Origin: an uncultured Mycoplasmatota bacterium
GTDB lineage: Bacteria > Bacillota_I > Bacilli_A > RF39 > UBA660
Direction of reading: 5' to 3'
NCBI GenBank assembly: GCA_900543675.1
Contig: UQRY01000001.1
Span: 2,002 to 66,001 of the forward strand
Length of the DNA: 64,000 nt
The notes below the pieces were generated by a model, which saw only the letters and a program-made list of their open reading frames with translations, was not told the origin of the DNA and searched no databases. Each line of letters starts with the position of its first letter. Positions within the stretch are counted from its first letter, which is position 1. The translations under genes were made by a program, and so were the position numbers. Below are positions 12,378-37,957 of the stretch, in pieces.

Positions 12378-13427
12378 TTAATTAAATAAATTTTCACTCA
12401 ATATCCTTTCTACCTCATTAATTAATTCCTCTCGATTAGGGATGTAATATGTGTAAGTAGAAGCAAACACTTTATTGGATAATCCTCCTAAAACATATTC
12501 CATAGTGACATCTTTCTTACCCGCACACAAAATAATTCCAATTGTCTCTTGATCAAATTCATCTTTTACTTCACTATTATAATAATTAATATACATATTC
12601 ATTTGACCAACATATTCTGGCTTCATTTTTTCAGTTTTCAAATCGATCAAGACATAAGATCTCAAAACTTTATTATAAAATACTAAATCAACATAATAGT
12701 GAGTATTATCATCTAAAGTAATTCTCATTTGATGACCAACATACATAAAGCCTTTCCCTAACTCTAATAGAAATGAAGATAAATGATGAATTAAATTCTT
12801 TTCTAATTCACTCTCTCGAACAGGCTTTTCTTCTTTAATTCCTAAAAATTCAAATACATAAGGTTCTTTCAATATATCCGTAGGACTACTGATCTCATTA
12901 CCTTTTTTCGATAATTCATAAACTTTCTCGATATTTTTCTTACCATTAGACAATAATAATCTTTGAAACAATAAAGAATCTATCTGCCTTTTTAACTCTC
13001 TTTTTGACCATCCAGAATTAATACATTCTTTTTCATAAAAGCTTCTTTCTCTATCATCTTCAATATAAATCAAATAGCAATAATGGGACCAACTCAAATT
13101 TCCAGCCAGTGGTTGGAAATTCTTATACCGAATATAAAATAGCCTCATATTATATAACCCTGACAAACTAAATCCTGTCCCATATTTATTCGTTAACCTC
13201 TTAGATAAATTTTTTAATACATCTTTACCGTATTCTGCACGAATATTACCATTTTGTTCATTTTCTACAATAATTTTACCAATAGTAAAATACGTATTCA
13301 CTAAAGTATGATTAATTTGATAAGTCATCTTAGTTTTATTTTCTACAATAATTTTTTCAATCTGATTAAATAATCCATCTACAATCTTTTCATCAATCAT
13401 TGGTTTTTCTGTTTTATTAGTATTCAT
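12378..13427 (-). CDS. YhcG-like DUF1016 protein with C-terminal PD-(D/E)XK nuclease domain
   Basis: 349 aa; C-terminal core ...YVDLVFYNKVLRSYVLIDLKTEK (D...IDLK = PD-(D/E)XK motif); N-domain typical of the YhcG family. Confidence 0.7.
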   Translation of the reverse strand: MNTNKTEKPMIDEKIVDGLFNQIEKIIVENKTKMTYQINHTLVNTYFTIGKIIVENEQNGNIRAEYGKDVLKNLSKRLTNKYGTGFSLSGLYNMRLFYIRYKNFQPLAGNLSWSHYCYLIYIEDDRERSFYEKECINSGWSKRELKRQIDSLLFQRLLLSNGKKNIEKVYELSKKGNEISSPTDILKEPYVFEFLGIKEEKPVRESELEKNLIHHLSSFLLELGKGFMYVGHQMRITLDDNTHYYVDLVFYNKVLRSYVLIDLKTEKMKPEYVGQMNMYINYYNSEVKDEFDQETIGIILCAGKKDVTMEYVLGGLSNKVFASTYTYYIPNREELINEVERILSENLFN

Positions 13428-13546
13428 ATAATTTCCTCCTATAATTTAGTTATTAGTATTGTAGTAAGAAAAACAATAAATGTCTTCCAAATTACAAAAT
13501 TTTCTATTCAACAATATAGCTTATTTAAAATCCAACATCTAACACA

Positions 13547-14551
13547 CTATTGACTTAATTCAAAATTTTTCTTTTCTTCCTCAACAGCAGCGATCAATTC
13601 TTGTTCAGTGGGTAAATGTAGTTGATAAGTAGTAGAAAAAATATTTTTGTTATCTTCTGGAAGTGTATATTTGACAACAGTTTCATTTTTAGTTGTGGAT
13701 AGTAATATTCCCACAGTTGAATTCTCCTCTTCCTGTTTAATTTCTCTATCATAATAATGAACATACATTTGCATTTGTCCAATATCTTGATGAGTTACTT
13801 TTCCTATTTTTAAATCTATAATAACAAAGCATTTTAATAATCGATTATAGAAAACTAAATCTGGATAAAAATGATCTTCCTCTAAAGTTAACCTTACCTG
13901 ATTACCAACATAAGTAAATCCTTTACCAAGTTCCAATAAAAACTCTTTTAAATGTTCTAATATATTCTTTTCTAAATCACTTTCTAAATACCGTGTATTT
14001 TCTTTGATATCAAAAAATTCTAATACAAATGGATCTTTTACTAGATCTTTACTATTCCTTAACACTTGTCCCTTTTCAGACAACTCTAGTATTTTTTTCT
14101 TATCAGCAGATAATAACAATCTTTCATACAACAATGAATCTCTTTGCCTTTGAAGTTCCCTCACACTCCATCTTGAATTTATACATTCGTGCATATAAAA
14201 TTTTCTTTTTGGCTCTTCCTCTATTTTTAGTAACTCTAAATAATGTGACCAACTTAATTACGACGACAGTGTTGTCGTAATTGGAAAATAGATATAAAAC
14301 TTTCTCATCCTCTCTAAATTTCTTTTAGAAAATCCTTTACCAAATTCAGCAGTTAATTTTTCTGACAATTTTTCTAAAACATAATCCCCGTAATTTGCTC
14401 TCTCATCCCCTTGTTGAATATCCATAATTGCTTTACCAATATTCCAATATAAATTAAGCATTTCCGTATTCACAACAGAATAAACTTTATTTCTACTACT
14501 AATAACTAATTCTTTAATATTATCAAATATATGATTAATTTGATTATCCAT
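13547..14551 (-). pseudogene. Second YhcG-like nuclease copy (tandem paralog) interrupted by an in-frame TAA
   Basis: The N-part (14258..14551) and C-part (13547..14194) are in the same frame: read-through gives ...FYIYFPITTTLSS*LSWSHYLELLKIEEEPKRKFYMHECINS..., colinear with copy 1 (...FYIRYKNFQPLAGNLSWSHYCYL...). The 5' flank (14570-14660) repeats the 5' flank of copy 1 (13440-13530). Confidence 0.55.
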
Positions 14552-14663: not shown

Positions 14664-17600
14664 TTATTTAGCCGCATTTTCTTTTTGTCTATAAGTAAGT
14701 AATAAAACGAATAAACCACCAATCAATGTACAAATACCAATAAAGATATACAATCCATTTACTTTAGTTCCTACCACCTTTCCAGGTAAGGAAGTATGAT
14801 AATAAGAATATAAAGCATAGTCTTGATAAATATTATCATTGATTGATTTATTGTAATCAACAGCTATCGTTTCTACTTTGCTTGACCCATTTAAATAACC
14901 TGATGCTTCATAAATATCATATGTCTTCTTGACTGGATCGTAGACTTCTACATATTCATAAGTGTCTTTTTCTTTAGAATCAATTACCTGTTCCAAAGAT
15001 TTTTCTTCTAACTTCGTAACTAGTTTTTGTGTTTCTTGATAAGCACTTTGATAACTTTCATCGAAAGTGTCTTGGTAAGTACTTCTTACTCGATCAGTAA
15101 AGTAATCGATAATAGTAACTTCTTTATCTATCGTAGAGATGATTCTTACTCCAGTTCGATAATCAAAGCCATAAATACTTCCATCTTCATATCTAACTAA
15201 GACAAAGCTACTATTTCCTAGAATATTACTACTCATTTCAACAATTTCTTTATTCTTGAAATCATTAGGATATTTGATCTCACTCTTTAAGGAATATAAC
15301 TTTCCATCCGAGCCTAAGACGAATAAGTAATCTTTATTATTATAAGAATCGATAATTAATTGATCCCCATAATACATCAAGTCAGACTTAAGCATAGTTA
15401 CTTTTCCATTTTTGATAAAGACTTGATTGTCAACTTCTTTTTCCTGATCAATTAAACTATAACTATAATACGTATCTATCTTCTGATTTTGATAAGTAAA
15501 ATTATAAAGCGGAATATTGTTTTGTCTACGAGAAAGATTGGTAATATTATTCTCTTGATAAACACCTGACTCTAGATCAAGAACCCTACCATCACTAGTT
15601 AAAGCATAGTGATCATATAGGTGGATGAAAGTATCATTATATTCTTTACTCTCATTAGTAATTAATTTTCCATCAGATAAATAGTAATAGTGATTTCCGA
15701 TAGTAAGTATTGTCTTCTTCACATCATCTGGAGTAAAGATATATTCCTTAGCATTTAATCCATCCGTGACTACTATTCTTAAATCTGTTTGATAATCATA
15801 ATAGAAAGTCATTGTCTTATCGGTTAATGAATATGGCGTATCGTTAACATAAACAGTTACATATTCATTTAATTCACTAAACTCTAAATTAACCGTATTA
15901 ATTCCTGATGAATAAGCAATTACTTGAGGTAGACTTCTCATATAATTCATCTGATAAGCAAGAGACATCGTGGATAGCTGAAAAGTAGAAGTTGGAAGTG
16001 GGATTAGCTCTTGACCTGGCGTATTTCTAAGAATTGGATAATAGCCAGTCGAAAGTGGCGAGAAATCAAATTCATTAGATGAAAATCCACGATTGGTATA
16101 AGTAATTTGCGTAGCCAAATCAGAAGCCGTTCCATAATTTTTTTCTTCAATACCAATAATATCTAAATCAGATACGATTTCTCCATTTAACTGAGAATTT
16201 TCATAAATCAAAGTATCTCTCATCGTAGTTGTCAATGCATCCCCATTTCCAACTACAATTCCAGCAGTAGATGGATCATTTACTGCCTCAACATTAGCGA
16301 CAATGATATTATTATAAATCTGATTAGCTGTTTTCATCGCATCGACTTGACCAACTAAACCACCAGCATTATAACTAGCTGAAATAGAGGAATTTTCTAT
16401 TAGGTTAGAATAAATGTAATGTAAACCTGAACCTGCCGTATCGATGTAATTATTTTGGTAATAGCCTAAAATACCACCTGCTCCACTACCAGATGCATTG
16501 ATCGTTGCTTGAATAGTATTATCTCTAAATGTTCTACCTGCATTTACACCATCAGTCATTCCAATAAGGCCACCTACATAATTATTACCAGAAATCACGC
16601 AATCTTGAATACTGTTTAAGTATATACTGCTAGCTTCCCCTCCTGTTATACCTCCTGTATAATTGCCAGGATTAACAATATTACTATGGTATATACCAGA
16701 ATTAAATACATTCCCACCTCCAATTCCTAAAAATCCACCAACATAAGTAGAGGTTGAATTTTTTCCAGAAATTTCAGAGTTTATTATATAACTATAACTA
16801 ATTGAACGATATCCATTTCCATAAATTCCACCCACATACTGATTACCTGATACTTGGGAATTTTCAATAATTACTTGTGAAATATCATATGCGCTATTAT
16901 AACCCGCTATACCACCGACTTGACTATATCCATCTACACTAGAATTTTTTATTGTTGAATTCGAGCATCCACCAGAACCATATAGAATACCATGAAAAGT
17001 ACCACCAGTTGATGTAACATGAACATCATCAGCATCAATATAAAAATGTTTAGCTTGAGTAGAGGTAATATTAGCAATATTTCCAACTAAGCCAGCTACA
17101 TTATTTGAACTACCTTTAACATTTACCGTTTTTAAAATAATATTTTTAACATCTGCTTCAGTCATTTGACCAACAAATCCTGCCGCTTGATTATTACCAC
17201 TTACTGTAACGTTATTCAAACGAATATTTTCAATTGATGTACTATAACTCTGAGATATACTTCCAACATAAGCCATTTTTGGAGCATTCACAATAATATT
17301 TTGAAAAGTCAAACCCTGCATGGTACCATAAGTATATTGAATAACAGCTGCATAGTTACCTGAAGCAGTAGAAGAAATATTAATATTATCAAAAATAACA
17401 TTAGAAATACTAGTATCAATTTGTTTAATCAAAGAAAGATTATTTTTAGTAGAAACAATTTCTAAATTCTTTAAGGTGTGTCCATTATCCGTTCCTTCTA
17501 AACGATTAAAAACTACTCCAGTATTTACATTAACCTTATCACTAAAATCAATATCTGCTATCAACCTATAATTTTCTGGATCTGTTGTACTAATCTTTTG

Positions 17601-20600
17601 CCAATCTTCAAAGGACTCTATGTCTTTATAGAATTGTAAATCAATCTTTACAGCAATATTATACGTCTGTTCTACTCCATCCTTTTGATAGACAATTTCT
17701 TGTAGTTCGTAACTATCATAAGCCTTGTCTGGTTTCACACTTAATTCTAAAGTTGTTACCCCATTCTCAGTGACATTCTTTCTGATTTCGGTTACTGTTA
17801 AACCATCAATTTTGGCATTGTTAACTGGAAGATTATCTTCATTTTGAAGACGAAGTAGTATATAAGCACTATCAATAGAAGGAAATACTTCTATTTCTGT
17901 TACTTCAAATTCATACTCAGTTAAATAATTCTTCGTTTGGTTAGGTAACAACTCCGCTGTATCTTTATAATAAAGGTATGGTAATTGATTTTCTTCTAAA
18001 TTATCTATTTTAAAAGCACTCCCTAATTGAATAAAGTTTTGATAGGTGAAAGGATCATTTAACTGTTCAGTAGTAAGTAAAGTTTCACCATTTGTTTGAC
18101 TGGTAATTAAACCGTTCATATGCTGATTATTCCAAGCATAATTATTTTGATTGACATTCATATTTCCTACTGTTCTTCGAACATTTTCACTACTAGATTT
18201 TGAATAAACATCACCTAAAACCAAAGTATTAGTTACTTGAGAAGAACTATAATTAATTAAATTACCGATTATTCCGCCAACATTTCCTTGAGTAGTATGG
18301 ATATTAACATTACTATAAACATTGGTTAAATTAATTGAACCAGGAACGTATCCTACTATTCCACCTACATTTTGACTATTTGCTTTTATTGTTCCGGTAG
18401 CATAAACATTTTGAATTGTTGCATAACTTGCCCAGCCAACTACGCCACCTATACCAGTTATAGAAGAAAATTCAGTTTCTAAATTTAAATCTTGTACATA
18501 ACAATTTTCAATTCTAGCATTATCTAAAGAGCCAACGATTCCTCCAATTCTTATATTTACTGCTGGTGTTAAACTATTATGTAATTTTACATTTGTAACT
18601 GAACAATTAATTATTTGTGTATTAAACGAAGCCGAACCTATAATACCACCCACATTAAGTGTAAGAGGAAGTTCGATATCTGAAACATGTACATTTTCGA
18701 TAACTGCCGGATTCGACTGAGTTGTATAGCCAATTAATCCATCATTGTCTAAATCATGTACTTCCGTTTTAAAAGCATGTTTTACATATAAGTTTTTTAC
18801 CGTACCCCGCAATTGACTAATAATTATTCCATTTCTAGTAGTCGTAGTAAGATTAGAAATTGTATGATTATTTCCATCTAGTACTCCGGAAAAATTTCCT
18901 AAATTTGGATTAATTCTATTTTGAAAATCTAAATCAGCAGTTAACATATAATTCTCACTTAAACTATTCTTGATATCTAACCATTCATCGACCGTGGATA
19001 CTTCTTTAAATAATTCGATTTGAAGTACTCTTTCGCCTTCTTCAAATTCTCTAGTATACGGTAAATTAAAACTATTTCTGGAAGTAATCGATTTAATAAA
19101 ATATTGTGATACATATCGAACGGGATTACTTACTTCAATAACTAAGGCAGTTGTTCCATTATTATCTTGTTGACTAATAATTGTTGTTGTTAAATCCTTT
19201 ATAGAAATATCTGTAATCTTTTCATTAGCAGGATTATGAACCGTTAAGGTTACTTTAGCTTTACTTCCTTGTTGATCTACCTTATCTACGGAAATAATAT
19301 CTACTAAATCTTCATCTTTTAATTCCGGTAAAGGAATATACTCTTGAGTTGGCATATCTTCATTCATAATTAACTGTGGATAATAACCATAAGATACAAA
19401 ATCATCAACATTAAATTGATTGGTACTACTATTTAATAAACGATCTTGGAAAGTGGTATTCCATAAAGCAGTTTTTGAAGTTTTCAAAGAATGAGACGTA
19501 TTATAGATAGAATTATTAATATAAAATGAATTTTGTGATTGAGCATTATTTATAATACCTAAATTAGGATCTGTATTTAAATCCCGATTTTCACCTTCTG
19601 CCACACTATATACATTTCTAACTGTACTTCGCTCGGAATATCCTATTAAATTTCCTACTCGATCATTAGAATCAGATTCCTCTAACAAATAGGCATCAAC
19701 ATCAATCAGTGAATATATATTTTCTAATACCGTATTTGAAGACGAAATTCCTATAACTGCCCCTACTCTTTGTTGATAACTAGAAATATTTTGATATGAA
19801 GCGATGATCTTTTCGCCGTACAAGTAACCATTTCGAATAGTTCCACGATTACTAGCTCTTGCAATAAATCCAAACTCGTGCGAAACATGAACATTATCCA
19901 TAATATGCACAATAAAATTTTCAATTATTCCATTATTATTACCACATAATAGAGAAAATTGATTAACTGGTGTTTCTGTTGCTTCTTCTAAGGTGATTTT
20001 TATATTTGAAATAATTCCATAATTCGAATACATTATACCATTATAGTACGTGGTATCAGAGCCTATCATATAAACATGTAAATCAAAATTTAATAATTTC
20101 CCTTCCGGTCCTAAGCCTGGATAAATCAATTGATCAAACTTATTTTCCATTAATAATTGATGTCCTTGAAAATCTAACGTAATATTAAATTGTTCTTCTC
20201 CTAAACTAGTATTTAAAGTTCTACTATCATTACGAATATCTAAATCTTCAACTACTAAATAAGTTCCATGTGTATGCATTCTAAAGAAATCATCTGGATT
20301 ATGAATACTTCTTATTTCTTCATTAGAATTAAACTCTAAACTATCCAAAGTATAAAAACGATCTCTGATTTTTATAGCTAATTCTATTCTATATTCTTTG
20401 TTTCTAGATAATTCTTTTAATATTTCAAAGTCCTCTATTTGATGATTTTCTAAATCATATTTGGTGTCACTAATCTTTTGATCGTTCTCATATAATCGAA
20501 TATAAAAATCGTTGGTAACTATTTCTTGTTTTGTATCTATTAAATTCACTTGAAAAGTAGCTTGATAATCTTCTTTCTCTGAATATTTCTGATAGTCAGT

Positions 20601-23438
20601 TTGGGTATTCCCTAACTCTACCTGAAAATCTTTAATTATTATAGATATAGGAATATTTTCACCTGTGGTATTTCTTAAATAAAAGCCAATATAACCACTA
20701 TCATTTAAGATCATTGTTCTCGAAAATGTGGTCCAGGTACCATCAGAATTTATATTCAAATCCGTCGCAGAATTTCCTGCATAGTGATTTACAAAATTAA
20801 CATCACCTATCTTTGAGCTTTCTTGATATTTAATTTGAAAAGATATCGTTACTTCTTGATTTCGGTATTCAGGTAAATAATAAGAAAAAGTTCTCCAATG
20901 ATTTATATTTGTTGTTAAATAAGACATATAAATCAAATTATTTTCTTCATCTATTTCTAGGGAATCCTCGGCATTGCTACCTTGTCTTCTCCATTTATCA
21001 CGATTTCCTATATCAATCAAGTTTCTACTTGTAATTTGTGGAAGTAAACTATCCAGAATTACTTCCCCATGAATACCTACTTCTGTAATGACTTCCTTTT
21101 CTAATAAAACTTTACTTTCTTCGTAACTAGAGTTTGTATATCCAGTATTGTATTCTTCAGCGATATAACGAAATACATAAGGGGTTTCTTTCTCTAACTT
21201 TTCTAAAGTGATTCTTTCATAGTCAGCATTGATCTTAATATCTTTCATTAACACCAAAGCTTCAGTATTTTTGTTTCTTACTTCTAGGATGACTCTATCG
21301 CTTTCAATAGATAAGTCACTATCTTCAATTCTTACATCAAAATCAATAAAGTCTTCCATGGTAAATTGGTTGATGATTTCTACTTTAGATTCTTTCTTTT
21401 TCGTCATGAATTCTTTTAAATTAGATAGAGTCGTTATATCATAACTGATATCTCCTTGTCTAATCTTTGCCGTTACTTCTATTTCGTAGTTCGTTTTTGA
21501 TTCTAGGTTTTCAATAACTACATCTTGAAAAGTTCCTGTCTTTAATTTATTTACTTCTTCACTACCCAATTGGATTCTACTAACTTCTTCTTTCGTATCC
21601 TGTTTTCTTGTAACGATTGTTACTTGATCTAATAATTCTATTAATCTCTTATCGGTATTATCAATATTTAAATAAAATCTATACCGAGCAGAATCAGAGG
21701 TAATACTCGCTTCTTCAAAAGTTACTCGAATAAATCCTAAAGAACTTAATGGATTGGTACTTACTTTAGTTTCTTTTAATAACTCATTTTCCCTAGTTCC
21801 TCTTCCATCTTCTAAATCATAATCTGCATAAATTCTAACAGTATAAATGATATTGGTATTTAAATTCTCTCCATTGATCTTATTATCTTTGATTTCTCCT
21901 TCTTGGACTAACTTACTGTTTTCATCATAAATTTCATATCTAAAACGATTTAATACAATATCATCTTTATTCTCTACTTCTACTCCTAAAGTAAATCTCG
22001 TAATATCTGTTTCTTCTACCTTGACATTCACAGTAGGTGCTTGCTTAGACGTTCTCGTCTCAAAAGAAGCATTCTCTACTTTCATTTCATTTCCTGCTTG
22101 ATCATAGATCGTAATGGTTCCTTGATAAGTCTGATTACTCTCTAAAGTTTCCCCAGTTTCATAAGTTACTTTTTCTAACCGTTTCATCTTATTAATTGTA
22201 CTACTCGATACTTGAAACTCATTATCTCCTACTTGAACAGTAATCTTCTTTATTCCTTTTAAAGCTTCACTTTCTTCACCATTTAAGAATCCAAATTCTT
22301 CTAACACAATCTTTTTCGCATAAATCTCTCCATTTTGATAAGTCAATTGAATAGGCTCCAAGGTAGACATATCTTTCGTATGAATTGTTTCTTCAATAAA
22401 AGTTCTTCTAATTTGTTTATTCTCTTCATTTAAATAATCATAAGTTCCTACTATCGTAAATTCCGTATCTGGATATAATCCGACTATCTCAATATCTCCA
22501 CTTCCATAGTAAGTCTTTCTTAAGAATAAATTTCCATTTTGATAGATTTCTATCGTTGGACTCTTCGTAATCCGATTATTTTTATCAGTAATCTCGATAT
22601 GTGCTTGTAGAGAATAAACATTCGCACGAATATTCGTTAAAGTAACTTCAGGTCTTACAAATCCCTCTTCTACTTCTTCTTCACTTGGTGGAGTTGTTTC
22701 CTCTTCTTGATTTCCATTATCCTCTGGAAGTTCTTCCTCTTCATCTGTTACTTCTTGTTTTTCTTTAATCTTAATCAAATCTAAAAAGTCTTCGTAAGTA
22801 GTTTGATTATTTTCTATTTCTATTATTGTTTTCTCATCTACTCCAGTTATCTCTTGATAAATCCATGTTTCATCTTTAAATTCATAATACCTAATTTCTT
22901 CTTCTTGAAAGTAAATAATACTGTATATCGGTATTTTTCTTTCTTCGGTTTCTGTAACTACTTTTATCGGAAGCGTATTCATCAGTAAATTTTCCTCTAA
23001 AAGTACAAAGCTATACTTTTCTTCATCTACCTTCAAATAATCAGAAGTATGATATAAATTACCAGAAGCGATAATCGTATTAGGAAAACCATCTACTTGT
23101 TCATAATCTAATTGGATAAATTTATTCGTAGAAGAAAGATTTAAAATCCTACTTCCATCTTTAGAGATTAATGGATAACTAGTGGAAATTTCTTCTTTTT
23201 TGTTTTCCCCTACATAAAGCTTATCTCCTTGTTGATAAATCTTATCCATCTCTTTTACTTGAGTAGTTTCTATTTTCTCTCTATCTTCATTATCCTCCTG
23301 ATATAAATTTGTGGTGATTTGGTTATTCTTTAATAAATAACCATCCATCTCAATAAAACCTACTTCTCTAAATCGCAAAAAGGTGATATAAAAACCTATC
23401 ACCAATACAACCACTAATATGCCGATTACTTTTTTCAT
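14664..23438 (-). CDS. Giant (2924 aa) membrane-anchored surface protein with GLUG-type beta-helix repeats
   Basis: N-terminal TM (MKKVIGILVVVLVIGFYITF) and C-terminal TM plus basic tail (GLYIFIGICTLIGGLFVLLLTYRQKENAAK). Two blocks of GLUG-like repeats (NVGGIIG, IGGIVG, GGVVGW, VGGIVGY, YVGGIYG, YVGGFLGIG, YVGGLIGM, AGGLVGQ). Last gene of the 11-gene operon. Confidence 0.7.
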   Translation of the reverse strand: MKKVIGILVVVLVIGFYITFLRFREVGFIEMDGYLLKNNQITTNLYQEDNEDREKIETTQVKEMDKIYQQGDKLYVGENKKEEISTSYPLISKDGSRILNLSSTNKFIQLDYEQVDGFPNTIIASGNLYHTSDYLKVDEEKYSFVLLEENLLMNTLPIKVVTETEERKIPIYSIIYFQEEEIRYYEFKDETWIYQEITGVDEKTIIEIENNQTTYEDFLDLIKIKEKQEVTDEEEELPEDNGNQEEETTPPSEEEVEEGFVRPEVTLTNIRANVYSLQAHIEITDKNNRITKSPTIEIYQNGNLFLRKTYYGSGDIEIVGLYPDTEFTIVGTYDYLNEENKQIRRTFIEETIHTKDMSTLEPIQLTYQNGEIYAKKIVLEEFGFLNGEESEALKGIKKITVQVGDNEFQVSSSTINKMKRLEKVTYETGETLESNQTYQGTITIYDQAGNEMKVENASFETRTSKQAPTVNVKVEETDITRFTLGVEVENKDDIVLNRFRYEIYDENSKLVQEGEIKDNKINGENLNTNIIYTVRIYADYDLEDGRGTRENELLKETKVSTNPLSSLGFIRVTFEEASITSDSARYRFYLNIDNTDKRLIELLDQVTIVTRKQDTKEEVSRIQLGSEEVNKLKTGTFQDVVIENLESKTNYEIEVTAKIRQGDISYDITTLSNLKEFMTKKKESKVEIINQFTMEDFIDFDVRIEDSDLSIESDRVILEVRNKNTEALVLMKDIKINADYERITLEKLEKETPYVFRYIAEEYNTGYTNSSYEESKVLLEKEVITEVGIHGEVILDSLLPQITSRNLIDIGNRDKWRRQGSNAEDSLEIDEENNLIYMSYLTTNINHWRTFSYYLPEYRNQEVTISFQIKYQESSKIGDVNFVNHYAGNSATDLNINSDGTWTTFSRTMILNDSGYIGFYLRNTTGENIPISIIIKDFQVELGNTQTDYQKYSEKEDYQATFQVNLIDTKQEIVTNDFYIRLYENDQKISDTKYDLENHQIEDFEILKELSRNKEYRIELAIKIRDRFYTLDSLEFNSNEEIRSIHNPDDFFRMHTHGTYLVVEDLDIRNDSRTLNTSLGEEQFNITLDFQGHQLLMENKFDQLIYPGLGPEGKLLNFDLHVYMIGSDTTYYNGIMYSNYGIISNIKITLEEATETPVNQFSLLCGNNNGIIENFIVHIMDNVHVSHEFGFIARASNRGTIRNGYLYGEKIIASYQNISSYQQRVGAVIGISSSNTVLENIYSLIDVDAYLLEESDSNDRVGNLIGYSERSTVRNVYSVAEGENRDLNTDPNLGIINNAQSQNSFYINNSIYNTSHSLKTSKTALWNTTFQDRLLNSSTNQFNVDDFVSYGYYPQLIMNEDMPTQEYIPLPELKDEDLVDIISVDKVDQQGSKAKVTLTVHNPANEKITDISIKDLTTTIISQQDNNGTTALVIEVSNPVRYVSQYFIKSITSRNSFNLPYTREFEEGERVLQIELFKEVSTVDEWLDIKNSLSENYMLTADLDFQNRINPNLGNFSGVLDGNNHTISNLTTTTRNGIIISQLRGTVKNLYVKHAFKTEVHDLDNDGLIGYTTQSNPAVIENVHVSDIELPLTLNVGGIIGSASFNTQIINCSVTNVKLHNSLTPAVNIRIGGIVGSLDNARIENCYVQDLNLETEFSSITGIGGVVGWASYATIQNVYATGTIKANSQNVGGIVGYVPGSINLTNVYSNVNIHTTQGNVGGIIGNLINYSSSQVTNTLVLGDVYSKSSSENVRRTVGNMNVNQNNYAWNNQHMNGLITSQTNGETLLTTEQLNDPFTYQNFIQLGSAFKIDNLEENQLPYLYYKDTAELLPNQTKNYLTEYEFEVTEIEVFPSIDSAYILLRLQNEDNLPVNNAKIDGLTVTEIRKNVTENGVTTLELSVKPDKAYDSYELQEIVYQKDGVEQTYNIAVKIDLQFYKDIESFEDWQKISTTDPENYRLIADIDFSDKVNVNTGVVFNRLEGTDNGHTLKNLEIVSTKNNLSLIKQIDTSISNVIFDNINISSTASGNYAAVIQYTYGTMQGLTFQNIIVNAPKMAYVGSISQSYSTSIENIRLNNVTVSGNNQAAGFVGQMTEADVKNIILKTVNVKGSSNNVAGLVGNIANITSTQAKHFYIDADDVHVTSTGGTFHGILYGSGGCSNSTIKNSSVDGYSQVGGIAGYNSAYDISQVIIENSQVSGNQYVGGIYGNGYRSISYSYIINSEISGKNSTSTYVGGFLGIGGGNVFNSGIYHSNIVNPGNYTGGITGGEASSIYLNSIQDCVISGNNYVGGLIGMTDGVNAGRTFRDNTIQATINASGSGAGGILGYYQNNYIDTAGSGLHYIYSNLIENSSISASYNAGGLVGQVDAMKTANQIYNNIIVANVEAVNDPSTAGIVVGNGDALTTTMRDTLIYENSQLNGEIVSDLDIIGIEEKNYGTASDLATQITYTNRGFSSNEFDFSPLSTGYYPILRNTPGQELIPLPTSTFQLSTMSLAYQMNYMRSLPQVIAYSSGINTVNLEFSELNEYVTVYVNDTPYSLTDKTMTFYYDYQTDLRIVVTDGLNAKEYIFTPDDVKKTILTIGNHYYYLSDGKLITNESKEYNDTFIHLYDHYALTSDGRVLDLESGVYQENNITNLSRRQNNIPLYNFTYQNQKIDTYYSYSLIDQEKEVDNQVFIKNGKVTMLKSDLMYYGDQLIIDSYNNKDYLFVLGSDGKLYSLKSEIKYPNDFKNKEIVEMSSNILGNSSFVLVRYEDGSIYGFDYRTGVRIISTIDKEVTIIDYFTDRVRSTYQDTFDESYQSAYQETQKLVTKLEEKSLEQVIDSKEKDTYEYVEVYDPVKKTYDIYEASGYLNGSSKVETIAVDYNKSINDNIYQDYALYSYYHTSLPGKVVGTKVNGLYIFIGICTLIGGLFVLLLTYRQKENAAK

Positions 23439-23451
23439 TCTATCACTTCCA

Positions 23452-24189
23452 TTATGAGAGATTATCTAAATAGTTTAAATTTTTCATTAATAATCTGGTA
23501 TTTTCACCATAGATAATACCATCAATACTGACATTTAACTGATACCCATTTCCTAAAACAAATACATCACCCGTAATATTTTCTTCTATGAATGCGTTAT
23601 CATTCTTATAATCATAAACCATAAGTTCACCATTATAATTAAAAACCAGATAAGAATAAGGAGAAAGCGGTATTGTTCTACCATCAGGTAATTGAATAGT
23701 TACTTCTTCTAAGAAGAAATATAGATCATTACCATCATAAAGAAAAGCATTTTCAATTAAATAATTAAGTCCCCTATTGGTTAAATAACTATCTACACCA
23801 GTACCATCTAAAACAGTAAAATAAGGAATCTTACGTTGTTGACCATTCGATTTAGGAAATACAACTGACATATCTTTAGGAAAGATTACTTTTTTTTCTT
23901 TTTGATAATAGAATGGATCAGAATCAAGTTCTACCACTTCATCATTGACTTTTAATTCCGTTATTTCTTGTTCATTACTAATCGTTAAAGAAGTATCATA
24001 CATAAACTTTTGAGTACCAAAATATTGATACATAGAAGCATCTTCTACTGTATAAGTTTCTAATTCTTTCTCTACTTGACGTAACAGTAAAACAACCCCA
24101 ACACCAATTAGTATAACTGCCAAACCAATCAAAAATTTAACGAAATGTTTCTTAAAAAACAGTCCTAATTTCTTCTTAAACTTTTTCAT
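23452..24189 (-). CDS. Membrane-anchored protein (N-terminal TM, extracytoplasmic domain), operon member
   Basis: 245 aa; basic N-terminus then TM (FLIGLAVILIGVGVVLLL); 13-nt gap to the giant gene, 1-nt gap to the upstream gene. Confidence 0.45.
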   Translation of the reverse strand: MKKFKKKLGLFFKKHFVKFLIGLAVILIGVGVVLLLRQVEKELETYTVEDASMYQYFGTQKFMYDTSLTISNEQEITELKVNDEVVELDSDPFYYQKEKKVIFPKDMSVVFPKSNGQQRKIPYFTVLDGTGVDSYLTNRGLNYLIENAFLYDGNDLYFFLEEVTIQLPDGRTIPLSPYSYLVFNYNGELMVYDYKNDNAFIEENITGDVFVLGNGYQLNVSIDGIIYGENTRLLMKNLNYLDNLS

Positions 24190-24190
24190 A

Positions 24191-24722
24191 TTATTTTTCT
24201 CCTTTTTTTAGTTTTCTTTGAATATGCTTATTTTTCTTCACTACATAATCAATATCCTTAATCGTAAAATAAGTACCATAAACAAACGTAAAAATAAGTA
24301 ATAGAATATAAATCAATACTACATACCAAACACTCTGTACTTGAAAAATATAATCATGAAAAATCATCTTAGAGAATAATACAAAATACAAGATAATAGA
24401 ATTTAAACTATCTAATAGTATATAAAAATATCTTTTGTTGAGTAAGTTATACAAAATACCTGGTATAAGTAAAAAATAGAAATGAACATCTTCAAAAATA
24501 GAAACATAATGATTTTGAAAAAGACAGTAAATAAAGAAAATATAACGAACAAGAAGAAGAGAAATGGATATGGTATTCATCGTAGTAAGTCCTAAGAAGA
24601 TACCATATATTTTTAATTTTCTTCCTTTGGGATTAAATTTCTTAAGGATTAAAAAGGTAAGAGCAATGATTAGAAAAACAGTAATGGAAAAGGTAACAAT
24701 GAAAGGAAAAAGATGAGCAATT

Positions 24723-24739
<17 letters not shown>
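24191..24739 (-). CDS. Polytopic membrane protein (about 5 TM), operon member
   Basis: 182 aa, hydrophobic throughout; overlaps the epsilon-like gene by 17 nt; not recognisably an F0 a-subunit. Confidence 0.45.
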
Positions 24740-27104
<2,365 letters not shown>

Positions 27105-27112
<8 letters not shown>

Positions 27113-28442
27113 TCTTCTTATCCTCTAAAAAGGAAAATTTCTGAATCATTTCACTCTCACTACAAGGAGAATATTTAGGTTGAATCAATTGATCAAGTAT
27201 CTTTTTTCCTTCAAATATTTTTGTTTGTAACTCTTTACTCATTTCGTCGATATTGGCCAATTCATAAATTTCTCTTGTTTCCAAATAACTAAGTAACTTA
27301 CGTCTTACTGTAGCTCCTAATTTTTTCATATCCTGAGTTTGAACTGAACCACCTAAACGGGAAACAGAAAGTCCATAATCGATAGCTGGTTTTTCTCCTT
27401 TTTGAAAACTCTTAGAAGATAATACAATCTGACCATCTGTGATAGAAATAATATTAGTCGAAATATAATCCGTAATATCTCCACCCTTAGTTTCAACAAC
27501 TGGTAGAATCGTTATACTAGCCCCATTTTTATACTGACAGCCTTTTTCTAATAATCTAGAATGTAAATAGAAGATATCTGATGGATAAGCATCTCTTCCT
27601 GGAGATTTTCCAGAAATCAAACTGATCTCTCGATAAGCATCAGCATGTCGTTTTAAATCATCTAAAATAACTAAAACATCATAACCTTGCTTCATATACT
27701 TTTCCGCTACTGATAAAGCATAATAAGGAGTTAAAACAAGTACTGGTGGCATTTCATCATTAAAAGCAGTAATGATAATCGTATAACTCATAGCGTTTTT
27801 CTTTAATAAATCATAATATATCTCTTTAACTTCTTTTTTTGTTTTCCCGATCGCACAATAGATACAGATCACATTTTTACCACGCTGATTAACAATCGTA
27901 TCTAAACAAATCTGACTCTTTCCTGTTTTTTTATCCCCGATAATCAATTGTCTTTGACCTCTACCAATCGGATAAATCAAATCAATTCCTGTTATTCCTG
28001 TCTGAAGTGGTCGTTTTACCGCTGTACGATCCATAATCGGAATAGGGTCTTCTTCAATTTTTACTTTTTCTTGATTTTGAAATTTCTTACCAATTAACTG
28101 ATCGATACCAAAAATATTAATCATTCTACCCAAGGCATCTTGAGAAAACTCCCCCATATATTCTTCATTAGTCTGATAAGCCAAATCTCCTATGGTAAGT
28201 TCCTCATCCTTATGTAAAATGGCAACAAATATACGATTGGTCTCAATCTTCGTTACATAACCAAGCGCTTTATTCGCTAAATTGATCTTTTCATAGAAAA
28301 AGACATCATCTAAGCCAACAACTTCGACGATAAACTCTTTCATATTGGTAATTTTCCCAACCCCAAATTGATTATTGTTACTTTCTATTCTCTGCATCTT
28401 ATCATTAACGATTCTGGTTAACTCATCTTCTTTTTCCACCAT
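27105..28442 (-). CDS. atpA: F-type ATPase alpha-like subunit
   Basis: 445 aa; Walker A GDKKTGKSQI; ...YREISLISGKSPGRDAYPSDIFYLHSRLLE...TDYISTNIISITDGQIVL near-colinear with canonical alpha; C-terminal domain shortened. Confidence 0.8.
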
Positions 28443-28453
28443 AGTATCACTCC

Positions 28454-29191
28454 TTATGTAAGACTGTAATCATATAATTTATCTTGATAACGAATCCGAA
28501 TCCCCTTGTATATTTTATCGTTATATATCGTCTTAATCCGTCTATCCAACTGATCATAATTTAAATCCTTATCCCCTACTTCAATATAGATAACAGGATC
28601 ACTCTTTCTGATTTCTACCTCTAAATATTCCAAAAAATCATTGACACTAAATCTCTTAGTTCCTAGATAATATTTTTCTATTTTCTCTCTAGAACTAGGA
28701 GATAATTTCTGGATAAGTTCTAAGAGTAAGTGTTTATCCTCTGATAGTTTGCGATAAATTTCATACTGTCCAATATACTGTTTTAAAGAGACAAGTTCTA
28801 AATAGATTCGATCATTTTCTTCTATTTGGTTTTCTCTTAAAAACATTGCAACGATTTTGTCATTATCCAAATCAAATTCTTCGTCAATTGTCTTCAATTT
28901 CTGTAATAAACCATCTACTTGATATTCAGGTAATTTATCTGAAACACAGACAACAGCCGCATCTTGAAAATTATCTCCTTCTTCTTCCAACCTTATTCTT
29001 TCTTTACTTTTCTCTAATTCAATTAACCTTTTTTCTCTTTCTTCTACTAGATCATCGTAATCTTGGAGTTTTAAAGCAAAATACTCTTTGGATTGATGAT
29101 TAATCTCTTCAACAATTTTCTTTAATAGAAGAACCATGACTAATGTTAAAACAAACAGTACGATAATAACGCCAACAATAACTTCTATCAT
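28454..29191 (-). CDS. Membrane-anchored coiled-coil protein, candidate b-like stator subunit
   Basis: 245 aa; N-terminal TM (IVGVIIVLFVLTLVMVLLL) followed by a charged coiled-coil; sits between the c-like and alpha genes as atpF does. Confidence 0.35.
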   Translation of the reverse strand: MIEVIVGVIIVLFVLTLVMVLLLKKIVEEINHQSKEYFALKLQDYDDLVEEREKRLIELEKSKERIRLEEEGDNFQDAAVVCVSDKLPEYQVDGLLQKLKTIDEEFDLDNDKIVAMFLRENQIEENDRIYLELVSLKQYIGQYEIYRKLSEDKHLLLELIQKLSPSSREKIEKYYLGTKRFSVNDFLEYLEVEIRKSDPVIYIEVGDKDLNYDQLDRRIKTIYNDKIYKGIRIRYQDKLYDYSLT

Positions 29192-29206: not shown

Positions 29207-29464
<258 letters not shown>

Positions 29465-30874
29465 TTATTCATTGATATATTTACTAGTGATCGGAAAATT
29501 GTTTACTAATTGGCCATTATAAACAAAATCCTCCACTCTAATTTCTATTAAATAGCCTAAATTACGATTATCAAAGCTTCCTGTATAAACACCGTTCGCA
29601 ATCTTAGAAACATCAATCGGTTGTTCACTAAGTACTTGATTATCAGAGTACAAGCGAATCGTACCACTTTCTAATTGATAAAGTGGATCAACTTTTAATT
29701 CATAATACAATTTACTAGAAGTAATCTTAGTAAAGGCAAGTTGATAATTAGGTTTCTTCGTCTTTATCTTGACAATATCATCTGTTACTTCTGTTTCTAA
29801 TTCATCCACTGACTTAGCTAGCTGATAACCAAAAGTTATTGTATACTCTGTATTAGGCGTAAGATCTCTAATTGTATACGAAGTGTTTTCCTTATTTAAA
29901 TAAATCTTTTTTGCTTCTACTCCCTCGCTTTGTAAAAGAAGAAAGATCGCATTATACTCATTGTTCGGATCAAAAACTTGATAATGAACGGTCAAACTGT
30001 TCACACTATTATCCACGGATTTCAACGAAACCCAACGAGTTAAATCAAGACGAATTTCATCTTCATTATCTTCTTGTTGTTGCTGTTCGTTCATATCGTT
30101 AATATTTCCTGTCAAATTATTAAAACTATTCACGAGTTGTTCAAAATAATCATCATAATAATTGGTATTATCTTCAGTAGTCGTATCGTCTTCTTCTACA
30201 ACTGGATCTTGATATTCATTACTACTACCAATAATATTTTTTAAATCAATTTCTCGATCAGCTAAAATTAACTTTTCATGAACAACATCGAAATCATACA
30301 AACTTCCCTTGATTACCATAGGATTAATTGTCTTCTCATACATCTCATGATTAGCCAATGTCGCATTCCCTTGTTTATCTAATTCGATAATCAAATACTC
30401 ATCAGTATTTAATCCACTAGTAGAAGTAAACGTACTATCGATCCACAAATACTTACGATCAGCTATCTTATAAAATTGAGGAACATTAGCTTTGACTACT
30501 TCTGTCATCTTGGTTAATTTAGTCACTTCTCCAGTTGTAGAAACTTGATAAAAAGTACCATATAAATACATCTTGTAATCGGTATCATTATAGACAACTG
30601 TACTTGGACCAATCTTATATTTTTCACTGACACCATCTGTTAACATCGTCAAGTAAAACGCATTAGCAAAACTTTTTTTCAATATAGCATCATCCGCAAC
30701 TTCGATATAATTAAAATCATCGTCATATAGAAAACTTCCCTTAGCTAAAGTATAAGTTGATGTATCTAAATTTAATACATAGCGGATCCCATAGAAGAAG
30801 ATCAATAAAATAACGAAAACCAATATAGCAAGTAATACAAACAAACGAATGTTTTTCATTCCTAATTTACGCAT
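29465..30874 (-). CDS. Membrane-anchored extracytoplasmic protein (469 aa), operon member
   Basis: N-terminal TM (IRLFVLLAILVFVILLIFFYG); acidic/poly-Q low-complexity stretch NEQQQQEDNEDE; 3-nt gap to the c-like gene. Confidence 0.45.
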   Translation of the reverse strand: MRKLGMKNIRLFVLLAILVFVILLIFFYGIRYVLNLDTSTYTLAKGSFLYDDDFNYIEVADDAILKKSFANAFYLTMLTDGVSEKYKIGPSTVVYNDTDYKMYLYGTFYQVSTTGEVTKLTKMTEVVKANVPQFYKIADRKYLWIDSTFTSTSGLNTDEYLIIELDKQGNATLANHEMYEKTINPMVIKGSLYDFDVVHEKLILADREIDLKNIIGSSNEYQDPVVEEDDTTTEDNTNYYDDYFEQLVNSFNNLTGNINDMNEQQQQEDNEDEIRLDLTRWVSLKSVDNSVNSLTVHYQVFDPNNEYNAIFLLLQSEGVEAKKIYLNKENTSYTIRDLTPNTEYTITFGYQLAKSVDELETEVTDDIVKIKTKKPNYQLAFTKITSSKLYYELKVDPLYQLESGTIRLYSDNQVLSEQPIDVSKIANGVYTGSFDNRNLGYLIEIRVEDFVYNGQLVNNFPITSKYINE

Positions 30875-30889
30875 CTGACCTTCTCCTTT

Positions 30890-33800
30890 CTAATCTACAA
30901 AGTTATATTGAATAGATTCTTCCGCAATTACTCGATCATCAGTTAAAAACTGCAACTGAATGTAATACACACCTGGCTCTGTAATAGAATCTGGCAATGT
31001 ATAAGTATAATAAGTAACACCACTAGCTGTACTCAAAACCGGAACAAACTCTGCCTGATTATCTATCGCATATCCATTATTACTATAAATAGAATAACGA
31101 ATATTATTAATCGAAGTTAATCGATAACTATCATAAAAAGCTAAATTTACTTTAGTCTTGTCATCTAAATTCGTAACCGCATAGATTTTACCAACGTCAA
31201 CTCCCGCATCATTTAAAGAAGAGGAGACATAAATTTTTTCTTGTTCAACTAAACTATCTGCATCATTAACAACATTCATTGTATATAAAATCTTTAATGT
31301 ATACTGTTTATCCGGTTCGATATTATTTACCGTAAACTTTTGATTATATTGGTCAGTATGATAATCTTTACCCTTATACTCATCAGGAATAATATCATTA
31401 CCCTCTTGATCTAAGATTTGAATACGATAATTATCGTTATAAATTACTTTTTGATAGTCATAAACACTAACTCTAAACGTTAAATCTAGTCCTTTAGAAT
31501 TATCTCTTGTTGAACTAATTCCAATATAGGGTTGACGCAACTGATTAAGCGTATAATAATAGCTACTTTCCGGTTGTAACTCGATCTCATAACTTTCATC
31601 ATTGTTATCAATCATAGTAAATGCTCGAATAACCACTACATATCGCTGTTCTGTTGTTACTCCACTACCTGGAGAAATTTTAATATACTTGGTCATTTCA
31701 CGACTAAATACATAATCTGGATCAATAGCCAAATCTAATTTAGTTAGAACTTCTTCTCCAACTTCATTCATATCTACTTTATATACTTCATAAACCAACC
31801 GATCAAAACCAGTTATTTCTTGTAATTGATAAGTAACTTTTAAATATTTTTCATCATAACTATCCGCTGTATATTCAATATGAATATCTGATGCCCCAAC
31901 ACTACCTAAAGTTTTAAAATAATAATTACGATTATTATTCTGATAATCAACATCGTATAACTGTGTACGTTCATAAGTACCACCATTATCAACATCAGCA
32001 AATACACGAATAAAATAATTTGTTTTAGGGATAAGTCCCTCAATTCGAACTGAACGATCTAAATCGCTAGTAGATACTTCCAAAGTCTGAATTAAATTAC
32101 TTTCTAACCCAGCTTCATCCGTTTGATAAACTTCAATATAAATCTTATCATTTAAAATTTGACTACCACTATCTCCATAAAGCTTAATATTTACATCCGC
32201 ATAAACTAATGCAGCTGCAATATTGGTATTACCATTTTTATCCATAATACTAATACCTGGGATAATCATATTAAATTCAAATTTTTCACTACCATCACTC
32301 GTTGCCTTTAATTGACCTAGTTGTTTAGGAAATAAATATTCGTAGTTGTAACTATAACCACCCTCATCTAATATCAAATCAACATCGACATCTTCTTGTT
32401 TATTTAAATCCGTTAAAGTAATGCGATTTTGTTTTTCCTGTTTTAATTGGAAATGGAATAAAGAACCATTAGCTTGAGGATTAGTCCGTAAATTCAACTT
32501 GCTATCTAAGGAATAATAACTACCATCATAAACACTATTTTCGATCATCTGTAACGCAAACTTATCCGTTTGAGTAGAATCATTAGGATTATATACCGTA
32601 TCGTACCCTAAAACTCCATTATCATAATATAAATATAATTCTGTAGTAACTTCTTGATTCATTAACTCTTCTAAGTCAGCTAAATCAACAACAATAGTAC
32701 CGTTATCAATAACTAAATTATCTAAAGTAACCGTCTTATCTCCAGTAAAAATTAATTTTGCACCCGCTACTCGATCATAAAAAGCAGTATTTTCAGCATA
32801 ATCTAACAAAGTAATAATCACACGATTGGTCTCTAAAGTAAGATTATATGTTTTATTGCTTGCCTTATATGGTAATTCAAAGTTTTGATAAACAAGTGAT
32901 TTTTCTTCTATCCTATCTGTAGTTTTAATCTTTGCTTCCCGAACATATAAAGTTAAATTGCCTGCTCTATTTAAAGGAAACTCTAATTTAGAAAAAGTAT
33001 CTGATACTTGAATATCTAAATTACCAAGAACACTATCATTAATCTTATAATACATCTTATCATCTACTAATACATGATCAATATCACTGTAACGATACGA
33101 CCAAACTAATTTGGAGTTCTGATAAGTAGACGGATAAGTATAAAAGTACGCAGACTGCTTTTCCGCATCGACATCAGACGAACGTAATACTACACCCGTT
33201 TCAGGTTTTGGATAAACCGTCTCCGTCGTACCATCAAAGTTCAAATCTAGATAAGCTTTATAAGTAAAGTAATAACGATTCCCTCGACGGAAGGTATCAT
33301 CCTGGACATTATATGGAGTACCATCTTCCAAATAGAATTCAACATAACCAATACTTCCATCTGATGGGATATCATAACTAAGCGTATCAACTACTTTACC
33401 AGTCACACTATCGATTACCTGATATTCGATTCGTTTCGCATATTTTTTAGAATTATCATAACCTGCTCGAATTCGATAACCAATAATCGTCTCTGGATCT
33501 AGTTCTTCCCGATAACGATCAGGATCACTATTATTACGGATAACATTCACTTCGATCGCATTATTCACATCACTAGGTAAATCTGGAATATAACCGTTAG
33601 TTTTCACCGTAATTACATTGTTTTTAATTGGGATATTATTCTGATATGTCGTATAATCGTAAGCATTAGTCACTTCAAGCGTATAGTATTCCGAAGTCAT
33701 ATCCTGATTTTTCAAACCGAAAAAGCTAGGATCTAACAAGAAAGACTGATCATAATATTCAGCTTTTAAATCACTTTCGTAATCATCGAGATTATGATCA

Positions 33801-37852: not shown

Positions 37853-37957
37853 CATGAAACACACCACCTAATAAAAGATATGAGAAAAATAAAAGAACTT
37901 TCTTTTAAAATTACATACTTCAGAAAAAATTCCATACAGTTTAATAGGTGAAGCAAG

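Follow-up and report, generated by a model that had tools for sequence, protein, structure and literature searches.

A predicted giant surface fibre closes a conserved F-type-derived ATPase operon in an uncultured Mycoplasmatota bacterium

Results

The giant gene is the last of 11 genes in an ATPase operon

We analyzed a stretch of 64,000 nt, hereafter the window (GenBank assembly GCA_900543675.1, contig UQRY01000001.1, positions 2,002 to 66,001 of the forward strand), from an uncultured Mycoplasmatota bacterium of the RF39 lineage. Our subject is a gene for a very large surface protein, here called the giant, which an original prediction made by reading the window had placed at the end of an ATPase-associated operon. 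The gene closes a run of 11 genes on one strand, in the order g1, g2, c-like, g3, alpha, gamma, beta, a small gene at the epsilon position, g7, g8 and giant (Table 1). The genes are separated by gaps of at most 15 nt or joined by short overlaps, which suggests one transcription unit, and scans for promoters and terminators at the operon ends gave nothing over shuffle expectation. A Shine-Dalgarno-like sequence, GGAAGTGA, is placed 5 nt upstream of the giant's ATG. A run of nine T residues lies directly past its stop codon, followed by a new ribosome-binding site and the next gene. Neither the c-like open reading frame (ORF; 29207-29461) nor the 89-aa ORF at the epsilon position (24723-24992) had been listed in the original prediction.

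The whole operon recurs beside divergent giants

Related loci were collected with one genome per species (76 loci), and the operon proteins of the window were compared with 79 loci by tblastn. The complete colinear operon precedes the giant at about 28 of these 79 loci. Counted by assembly, 35 of 48 have ATPase genes adjoining a giant; their labels are Bacilli, 'Mollicutes' (among them Mycoplasma sp. CAG:956), Clostridia or Peptococcia. The giants beside a colinear operon share just 27-45% identity; a relative at 36% has an identical gene order, including an annotated ATP-synt_C gene. Seven loci (L006, L008, L009, L060, L065, L073 and L075) have a permuted order in which the giant stands before g1, and there too the adjacency is kept. 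Distant giants of 5088 and 3791 aa also close the same operon. Where ATPase genes are lacking, the locus is a short contig or a tandem array of giant paralogs.

For a test in the reverse direction, metagenome contigs were seeded with the c-like protein. The N-terminus of a giant follows g8 in 24 of these contigs, and a giant precedes g1 in 3; three other contigs with at least 8.5 kb downstream carry a truncation or a variant form. Recurrence of the whole operon upholds the giant as its terminal gene, and, because the entire operon is conserved across Firmicutes-class labels, the link between giant and ATPase is much stronger than the original prediction could see. Gene order across genomes shows the giant to be a conserved and, on this comparative evidence, dedicated component of the operon.

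The ATPase is F-type-derived and its c-like subunit has lost the ion site

The beta subunit is an atpD equivalog, scoring above the TIGR01039 cut-off of 462.85 bits, and its best match in the Protein Data Bank (PDB) is a Bacillus-type F1 beta (398 bits). Homology to F1 is also clear for alpha and gamma, which do not reach the equivalog cut-offs; alpha aligns to residues 5-428 of the 502-aa Bacillus alpha and stays under the atpA cut-offs. When the c-like protein was aligned with the c subunits of A. woodii and I. tartaricus, the ion-binding Glu (in A. woodii c2, AVAETTG) fell on a Thr. Among 60 distinct c-like sequences this column holds T, A, S, M, V or N, and D or E occurs in the helix-2 core of none (0/60). 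The GRNPETK loop, which we take to correspond to the loop that faces gamma/epsilon in F-ATPases, is invariant in an alignment of nine sequences. No member of the Pfam families for subunits a, b or delta was detected, and ATP-synt_A, ATP-synt_B and OSCP were absent for g7 and g3 at E values up to 10. With a c-like subunit that has no carboxylate and with no a, b or delta family, this F-type assembly is apparently unable to carry ions in the usual way.

Some variation was seen among the motor genes. The beta ORF as first delimited (24985-26439, minus strand) opens at a TTG and reaches 116 nt into gamma; the likelier start is the ATG at 26334, giving about 450 aa as called on contig L003. At the locus of the 5088-aa giant (L160, 6167-6937) a ParA/MinD-like ATPase gene stands between gamma and beta, and at another locus (L002, 4286-6352) alpha is extended to 688 aa.

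The remaining operon proteins include three further anchored proteins

The first gene, which had been described as N-anchored, does encode a hydrophobic N-terminal anchor by hydropathy, and a weak fn3 match was found in the protein. The 89-aa protein is assigned to epsilon by position and size only, because it gave no Pfam match. The membrane protein g7 has no Pfam similarity to subunit a, and only a single Arg in it is moderately conserved (at least 60% of sequences). No Pfam match was obtained for g8, and searches with Pfam and NCBIfam showed no Ig-binding or protease domain anywhere in the operon proteins.

A comparison of the N-terminal regions of the four anchored proteins, suggested in the original prediction as a check for a shared domain, paired only g1 with g2 (hhalign 85-96%): hidden Markov model searches among the anchored operon proteins gave no other cross-family match at E <1e-3. 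The N-regions of g8 and the giant align at 88% in hhalign when the membrane helices are included, and with E 0.014 over 59 columns when they are not.

The giant is predicted to be anchored at both ends

The prediction that the giant carries a membrane helix at each end is supported by hydropathy. Both helices are also present in AlphaFold2 (AF2) models, at residues 2-20 and 2895-2923. Their orientations obey the positive-inside rule, so that about 2870 residues are predicted to be extracellular. The N-terminal hydrophobic stretch is kept in the family consensus, and no lipobox Cys was found in the region of this helix.

Motif scans agreed with two further statements made by eye. HExxH has no match in the giant, in line with the reported lack of a zincin motif. 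The sequence SLPGK, held not to be a canonical sortase signal, is present in the giant and is not conserved in homologues; a regular expression for the sortase pattern (LPx[TASG][GASN]) found nothing in the giant. A hydrophobic helix and basic tail are common at the C-termini of homologues, which share no motif ahead of the helix. A sortase signal was rejected on these grounds. Enzyme domains were not detected in the giant by Pfam, NCBIfam, PADLOC or a PDB sequence profile, and the family has no invariant set of His, Cys or Ser residues and no invariant His.

GLUG-type repeats are predicted to build beta-helix blocks

The pattern [VIATNYF][GA]G[ILVFM]xG occurs 14 times in the giant, compared with 0.09 expected in shuffles. 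These GGxxG turns form two arrays (residues 1596-1720 and 2085-2358), with a spacing of 27-38 aa save for one gap of 60 aa. Two arrays of GLUG repeats had been claimed. The Pfam Glug model (PF07581; gathering cut-off 20.5 bits) gives 23.8 bits on the whole giant and, on residues 1581-1760 alone, 67.9 bits (E 4.6e-19) over four stretches, which confirms the first array; the second (residues 2071-2400) reaches 14.4 bits and remains sub-threshold. Ahead of both lies a putative beta-helix-like block with no Pfam match and no GLUG.

A PDB search with the giant family profile matched residues 1591-1735 to 3n6z_A, a fragment annotated 'putative IgA1 protease' (E 3.3e-5). Residues 1939-2409 are modelled as short regular strands, and the top Foldseek matches of this third block are S. 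pneumoniae IgA1 protease (7uvl_P, E 2.4e-4) and isopullulanase (E 2.6e-3). The GLUG-type repeats here are predicted, from the model, to build a beta-helix.

The rest of the giant is mostly beta-stranded in models

Two AF2 models, of residues 1-1100 and 1750-2924, were built on small alignments of homologue fragments, with mean predicted local distance difference test scores (pLDDT) of 79.6 and 71.5. Foldseek was run on these multi-domain models, and TM-scores were low. Next to the N-terminal helix, an all-beta domain without a Pfam match, modelled at residues 24-221, is followed by an acidic linker and a rod of FN3/Ig-like sandwiches. Foldseek matched this rod to titin/MyBP-C, fibronectin FN3 strings and the MG domains of alpha-2-macroglobulin (E 1e-14 to 1e-9).

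The region at residues ~800-945 is possibly a carbohydrate-binding module (CBM) of the CBM4-like, jelly-roll type. Its family profile has a borderline match only, to the laminarinase CBM 1gui_A (E 1.4e-3), and two further beta-sandwiches follow it in the AF2 model. Relatives carry inserts near this region that differ by subfamily, with glycine-rich PF12810 or LamG domains, which makes it a candidate ligand-binding site. Giants of 3200-3280 aa (P0011-P0021) have an insert of about 290 aa with the PF12810 domain near residue 940, and homologue P0118 carries LamG (PF13385).

An Ig-like domain is modelled ahead of the third beta-helix. The beta-rich C-terminal region (residues 2506-2768) has weak BamB/WD40 Foldseek matches (E ~6e-3) and is partly absent in a third to half of relatives; helices connect this region to the terminal membrane helix in the AF2 model. 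Sequence conservation is roughly even over the giant's length. Taken with the two anchors, the models predict that the giant is a mostly beta-stranded extracellular fibre held to the membrane by a helix at each end.

The giant belongs to a large family of unnamed proteins

A search of ~5.8 billion proteins returned 176 homologues. Those listed (120 of the 176) are 2792-3524 aa long, collinear with the giant and essentially all unnamed. A profile of the N-domain, run against 1.84 billion representatives, matched at least 401 clusters at 50% identity. In the 150 clusters listed of these 401, the domain sits near the N-terminus, as expected of a family-specific module beside the membrane, and full-size proteins reach 5088 aa. 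Many related contigs are labelled human-gut or animal-gut; others come from activated sludge and other metagenome-assembled genomes (MAGs), some of them labelled Peptococcia.

Clostridia-labelled MAGs contain tandem arrays of two to five giant paralogs with ~30-35% identity to the window's giant. Such arrays were seen at L025 and L077 (one contig), L042, L010, L015/L032, L023/L067 and L001, and on the L025/L077 contig further copies stand in tandem after the giant that belongs to the operon. In some lineages extra genes lie between g8 and the giant (L098, 9933-11405; L083, 6132-7559), one with a g8-like module (E 4e-22) and one with a module like the giant's N-domain (E 6e-8). The juxtamembrane domains of the anchored proteins seem, by these matches, to be modular. 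At two loci (L136, 61-3454; L146, 1258-4366) an ORF matching giant residues 2015-2769 only lies about 1.1 kb after a divergent c-like gene (58-59% identity). This arrangement may be a reduced form of the system.

Genes flanking the operon

Directly upstream of the operon (36692-38758) are genes for a PBP5-type D-Ala-D-Ala carboxypeptidase and VanY. These suggest peptidoglycan synthesis in this organism, whose relatives nevertheless include MAGs labelled 'Mollicutes'. Just downstream (12378-14194, minus strand) are two adjoining genes for YhcG/DUF1016 PDDEXK nucleases, the second without the N-terminal domain. Further along (8254-9900, minus strand) is a gene for a 548-aa protein with DUF285 ('Mycoplasma protein of unknown function'), BspA-type leucine-rich repeats and a weak camelysin-like match at its N-terminus.

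Table 1. Genes of the operon and predicted regions of the giant, in window coordinates
Feature	Coordinates	Strand	Description
Giant gene	14664..23438	-	ATG-to-stop ORF, 2924 aa; last operon gene; full-length homologues 2800-5088 aa
Giant: N-terminal membrane helix	23376..23432	-	Residues 3-21, after MKK; Kyte-Doolittle hydropathy 2.59; predicted signal anchor
Giant: family-specific all-beta N-domain	22743..23375	-	Residues 22-232, next to membrane; pLDDT ~85
Giant: acidic linker, predicted disordered	22665..22760	-	Residues 227-258; pLDDT <50; E/D/T/P-rich
Giant: rod of FN3/Ig-like beta-sandwiches	21039..22649	-	Residues 264-800; AF2 pLDDT 80-90
Giant: beta-rich, possibly jelly-roll CBM4-like domain	20604..21041	-	Residues ~800-945; strands in AF2 model
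Giant: putative first beta-helix-like block	19449..20267	-	Residues ~1058-1330; degenerate turns; from sequence pattern and invariant N/G columns
Giant: second block, true GLUG array	18159..18953	-	Residues ~1496-1760; YxLxADLDF motif ahead; Pfam Glug 67.9 bits
Giant: third, longest beta-helix (predicted)	16212..17624	-	Residues ~1939-2409; 9 GGxxG turns; AF2 pLDDT ~90
Giant: beta-rich C-terminal region, possibly propeller-like	15135..15923	-	Residues 2506-2768; low confidence, pLDDT ~40-78
Giant: C-terminal membrane helix and basic tail	14667..14753	-	Helix residues 2896-2914; hydropathy 2.63; tail TYRQKENAAK
g8	23452..24189	-	245 aa, N-anchored; directly ahead of giant in most related loci
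g7, polytopic membrane protein	24191..24739	-	182 aa, 4-5 hydrophobic segments; possible stator part
Conserved ORF, epsilon position	24723..24992	-	89 aa; conserved in 53 distinct sequences; between beta and g7
F1 beta	24985..26334	-	449 aa; P-loop, GERSREG and DELSNED intact; TIGR01039 477.4 bits
F1 gamma-like	26324..27112	-	262 aa; PF00231 E 7e-22
F1 alpha-like	27105..28442	-	445 aa; PF00006; C-terminus shorter than canonical alpha
g3, b-like stalk candidate	28454..29191	-	245 aa; N-terminal membrane helix, charged and probably helical stretch, conserved C-terminal domain
c-subunit-like	29207..29461	-	84 aa; PF00137 32.2 bits; ion-binding Glu/Asp replaced
g2	29465..30874	-	469 aa, N-anchored, FN3-like region; N-region related to that of g1
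g1, first operon gene	30890..36118	-	1742 aa, N-anchored, FN3-rich; weak fn3 match

Discussion

A possible ATP-driven machine for surface work

Rotary ATPases are textbook ion-coupled energy converters. The operon described here keeps homologues of alpha, beta and gamma, a protein at the epsilon position and a c-like subunit without the ion-binding carboxylate, accompanied by a b-like stalk candidate and a small polytopic membrane protein. Our leading explanation, to which we give an even chance, is that the 11 genes encode an ATP-driven, non-ion-pumping machine derived from an F-type ATPase, with the giant as its surface effector arm. ATP hydrolysis by the F1 head would move the membrane sector instead of pumping ions, and the anchored surface proteins would take up this movement through their membrane helices and juxtamembrane domains. 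The giant would then serve as the working arm: with an FN3 rod, a possibly CBM-like head region and three beta-helix blocks, it would use ATP to bind and let go of an external glycan or cell surface, to pull on it or to move on it. The logic would be that proposed for the F1-like ATPases of mycoplasma type 2 gliding and of the type 3 MIB-MIP system.

Several observations weigh against this explanation. We infer the coupling of giant and ATPase from gene linkage alone, and no ligand or enzymatic site was identified in the giant; the CBM-like match, at E 1.4e-3, is borderline, and confidence in the model of the C-terminal region is low. Giants without an ATPase gene within 10 kb occur at L001 and at the OZ006978 loci L015, L023, L032 and L067, and two long records, OZ006978 and the ERZ24879769 contig, hold giant arrays with no ATPase within 10 kb. 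Tandem arrays and ATPase-free loci imply that not every copy needs its own motor. The PBP5 and VanY genes next door make a wall probable in this organism, and a mechanical model has to allow for it: a motor in the membrane would have to move the fibre through this wall. A carboxylate-free c-like ring could equally be a static anchor.

In one alternative, which we consider unlikely but worth weighing, the giant is a passive coat fibre or adhesin that is merely co-expressed with an ATPase serving another purpose, with no mechanical transfer between them. An FN3 rod, a beta-helix and a possible CBM-like module are typical of passive Gram-positive adhesins, and the tandem paralogs away from ATPase genes resemble diversifying adhesin families. 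Co-expression leaves unexplained, however, why the same 11 genes stay together when the giants share 27-45% identity, across class labels and even in permuted order. Nor does it account for the loss of the motor's ion site.

The ATPase might instead resemble FliI/SctN, the F1-related ATPases of type III export, and energize the translocation or folding of ectodomains of ~2900 and ~1700 residues, with the giant as cargo. Alpha and beta match FliI/YscN models (far below the cut-offs), the candidate cargo proteins have very long ectodomains and signal anchors that look uncleaved, and one exporter could serve the extra giant paralogs. We nevertheless think this improbable, since gamma, the epsilon-position protein and the c-like subunit are all kept, which points to a rotary F-type build and not to an export gate. 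The operon encodes no FlhA/FlhB-like or other channel protein, and g7 has just 4-5 hydrophobic segments. Moreover, proteins with N-terminal signal anchors are ordinary substrates of Sec/YidC.

A long shot is that the ATPase energizes the giant to bind or cut host IgA in the manner of IgA1 proteases or MIB-MIP. In the structure and profile searches the beta-helix matched S. pneumoniae IgA1 protease and the 'putative IgA1 protease' fragment best, many related contigs have human-gut or animal-gut labels, and type 3 ATPases power MIB-MIP (PMC12994834). These matches cover a generic beta-helix scaffold only and are weak (E 2e-4, TM-score ~0.08), while the operon proteins have no HExxH, M26 or other protease domain and the family no invariant His. 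The family is also found in activated-sludge and other MAGs, including some labelled Peptococcia. The parallel with MIB-MIP and IgA proteases drawn in the original prediction has no direct support and, because no Ig-binding or protease domain was found, is a functional analogy only.

A routine sortase-anchored wall adhesin, beside an ATPase by coincidence in this one genome, is scarcely credible: SLPGK followed by a hydrophobic stretch and basic tail looks superficially like a sorting signal, but the giant has no LPxTG-type motif, its homologues share none ahead of the helix, and an ATPase neighbourhood is the rule, not the exception. The missing motif and the recurrent neighbourhood together contradict this reading.

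Returning to the giant as effector arm of an ATP-driven machine, a bolder and more doubtful extension is that the operon adds a third class to the mechanochemical surface machines derived from F-type ATPases, and the first from apparently walled Firmicutes. Its complete F1 head and ion-blind c-like ring would use ATP to move giant fibres for motility, attachment and release, or the handling of prey or host surfaces. Because a c-like subunit and the alpha-gamma-beta order are kept, such a machine may resemble an evolutionary intermediate to mycoplasma types 2 and 3. To our knowledge, the only accepted cases of F1 motors re-used for cell-surface work are two mycoplasma systems, and the operon would be a second case, independent of these and simpler in structure, from which to learn how an F1 motor can drive extracellular proteins. 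It is widespread and unannotated; the N-domain family by itself has at least 401 clusters at 50% identity, and many of the source contigs are gut-labelled. If the proposal is true, a role could be assigned to a large family of hypothetical proteins of 2800-5000 residues in uncultured gut Bacilli and Clostridia.

Comparison with known systems

Literature searches on F1-like ATPases with a c-ring or surface proteins in Firmicutes, Bacillota or RF39 returned no account of this operon, only the mycoplasma and Omnitrophota cases. With a Bacillus-type F1Fo the motor shares an atpD equivalog beta, the order alpha-gamma-beta with a small gene next in line, and the GxGxGxG helix and RNPE loop of a c-like subunit. 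It departs from canonical F1Fo in its missing c carboxylate (0/60), in the absence of an a, delta or b family, in a short alpha that falls below its cut-offs, and in the four large surface-protein genes within the operon.

F1-like ATPases that work with surface proteins have precedent (PMC12994834, PMC11864180, PMC3369863, PMC10066038). For the F1-derived type 2 motor of mycoplasmas, the proposal is that force crosses the membrane and acts on very large surface proteins anchored there (PMC11864180, PMC12994834). Like the M. mobile version (G1-ATPase with Gli349, Gli521 and Gli123), the window combines F1-derived alpha, beta and gamma with giant anchored surface proteins, and its alpha scores 291 bits against G1 alpha (9io5_D), above E. 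coli or mitochondrial alpha. We take the M. mobile cluster to have a 12-helix membrane protein and no c, with gamma and epsilon ahead of alpha and beta, and the Gli genes elsewhere in the genome. The window, by contrast, keeps a c-like subunit and the alpha-gamma-beta order, and its surface proteins lie inside the operon. With NCBIfam, its alpha reaches 399.1 bits against the MMOB1660 cut-off of 600 and its beta 393.2 against 850 for MMOB1670; its host, unlike M. mobile, appears to have peptidoglycan enzymes. General Pfam and NCBIfam scans gave no match of the Gli349, Gli521 or Gli123 type, with no comparison aimed at Gli made.

The type 3 ATPase (F1-like X0) is needed for MIB-MIP function (PMC12994834). 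As in that system, the ATPase cluster in the window adjoins genes for surface effectors, and giants occur in tandem paralog arrays. MIB-MIP pairs, too, presumably occur in tandem copies. The window's alpha scores 308.1 bits, however, against the MSC_0619 cut-off of 520, and its beta 412.3 against 570 for MSC_0618 (NCBIfam). The operon has no match to the accessory proteins MSC_0620-0624 of the seven-gene type 3 cluster and no MIB- or MIP-like domain; in place of the 12-helix membrane protein of that cluster are the c-like hairpin and a protein of 4-5 hydrophobic segments. The cluster is thus not of the mycoplasma type 3 kind, with which the original prediction had drawn a speculative parallel, given the sub-cut-off MSC models, the alpha-gamma-beta order and the presence of a c-like subunit. 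By profile scores and gene content, the motor is not a member of the mycoplasma F1-like X0 families.

The giant resembles the beta-helix of streptococcal IgA1 protease ZmpA (PDB 7uvl, 6xja) and 3n6z in its GLUG array, predicted right-handed beta-helix and GGxxG turns. Unlike the IgA1 protease/Zmp (M26) proteins, it has no M26 domain, HExxH or wall-sorting signal by Pfam, NCBIfam and motif scan. Known GLUG proteins also differ from the giant in its three beta-helix blocks, the helix at each end, the family-specific N-domain and the ATPase neighbourhood.

Outside the Mollicutes, Seymour et al. (2023) described non-respiratory F-type ATPases beside type IVa pilus loci in Omnitrophota, for which attachment or motility was proposed (PMC10066038). 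By description these are like the present case in standing beside surface-appendage genes outside that class, but they belong to another phylum, and the partners there are pili where here they are giant, apparently anchored fibres. Set against these systems, the giant is, as a protein, a new architectural variant of the GLUG/beta-helix surface proteins. The system as a whole is a variation on the theme of an F1-like ATPase with a surface effector, set apart by its ion-blind c-like subunit, its operon-encoded giants and its apparently walled Firmicutes hosts.

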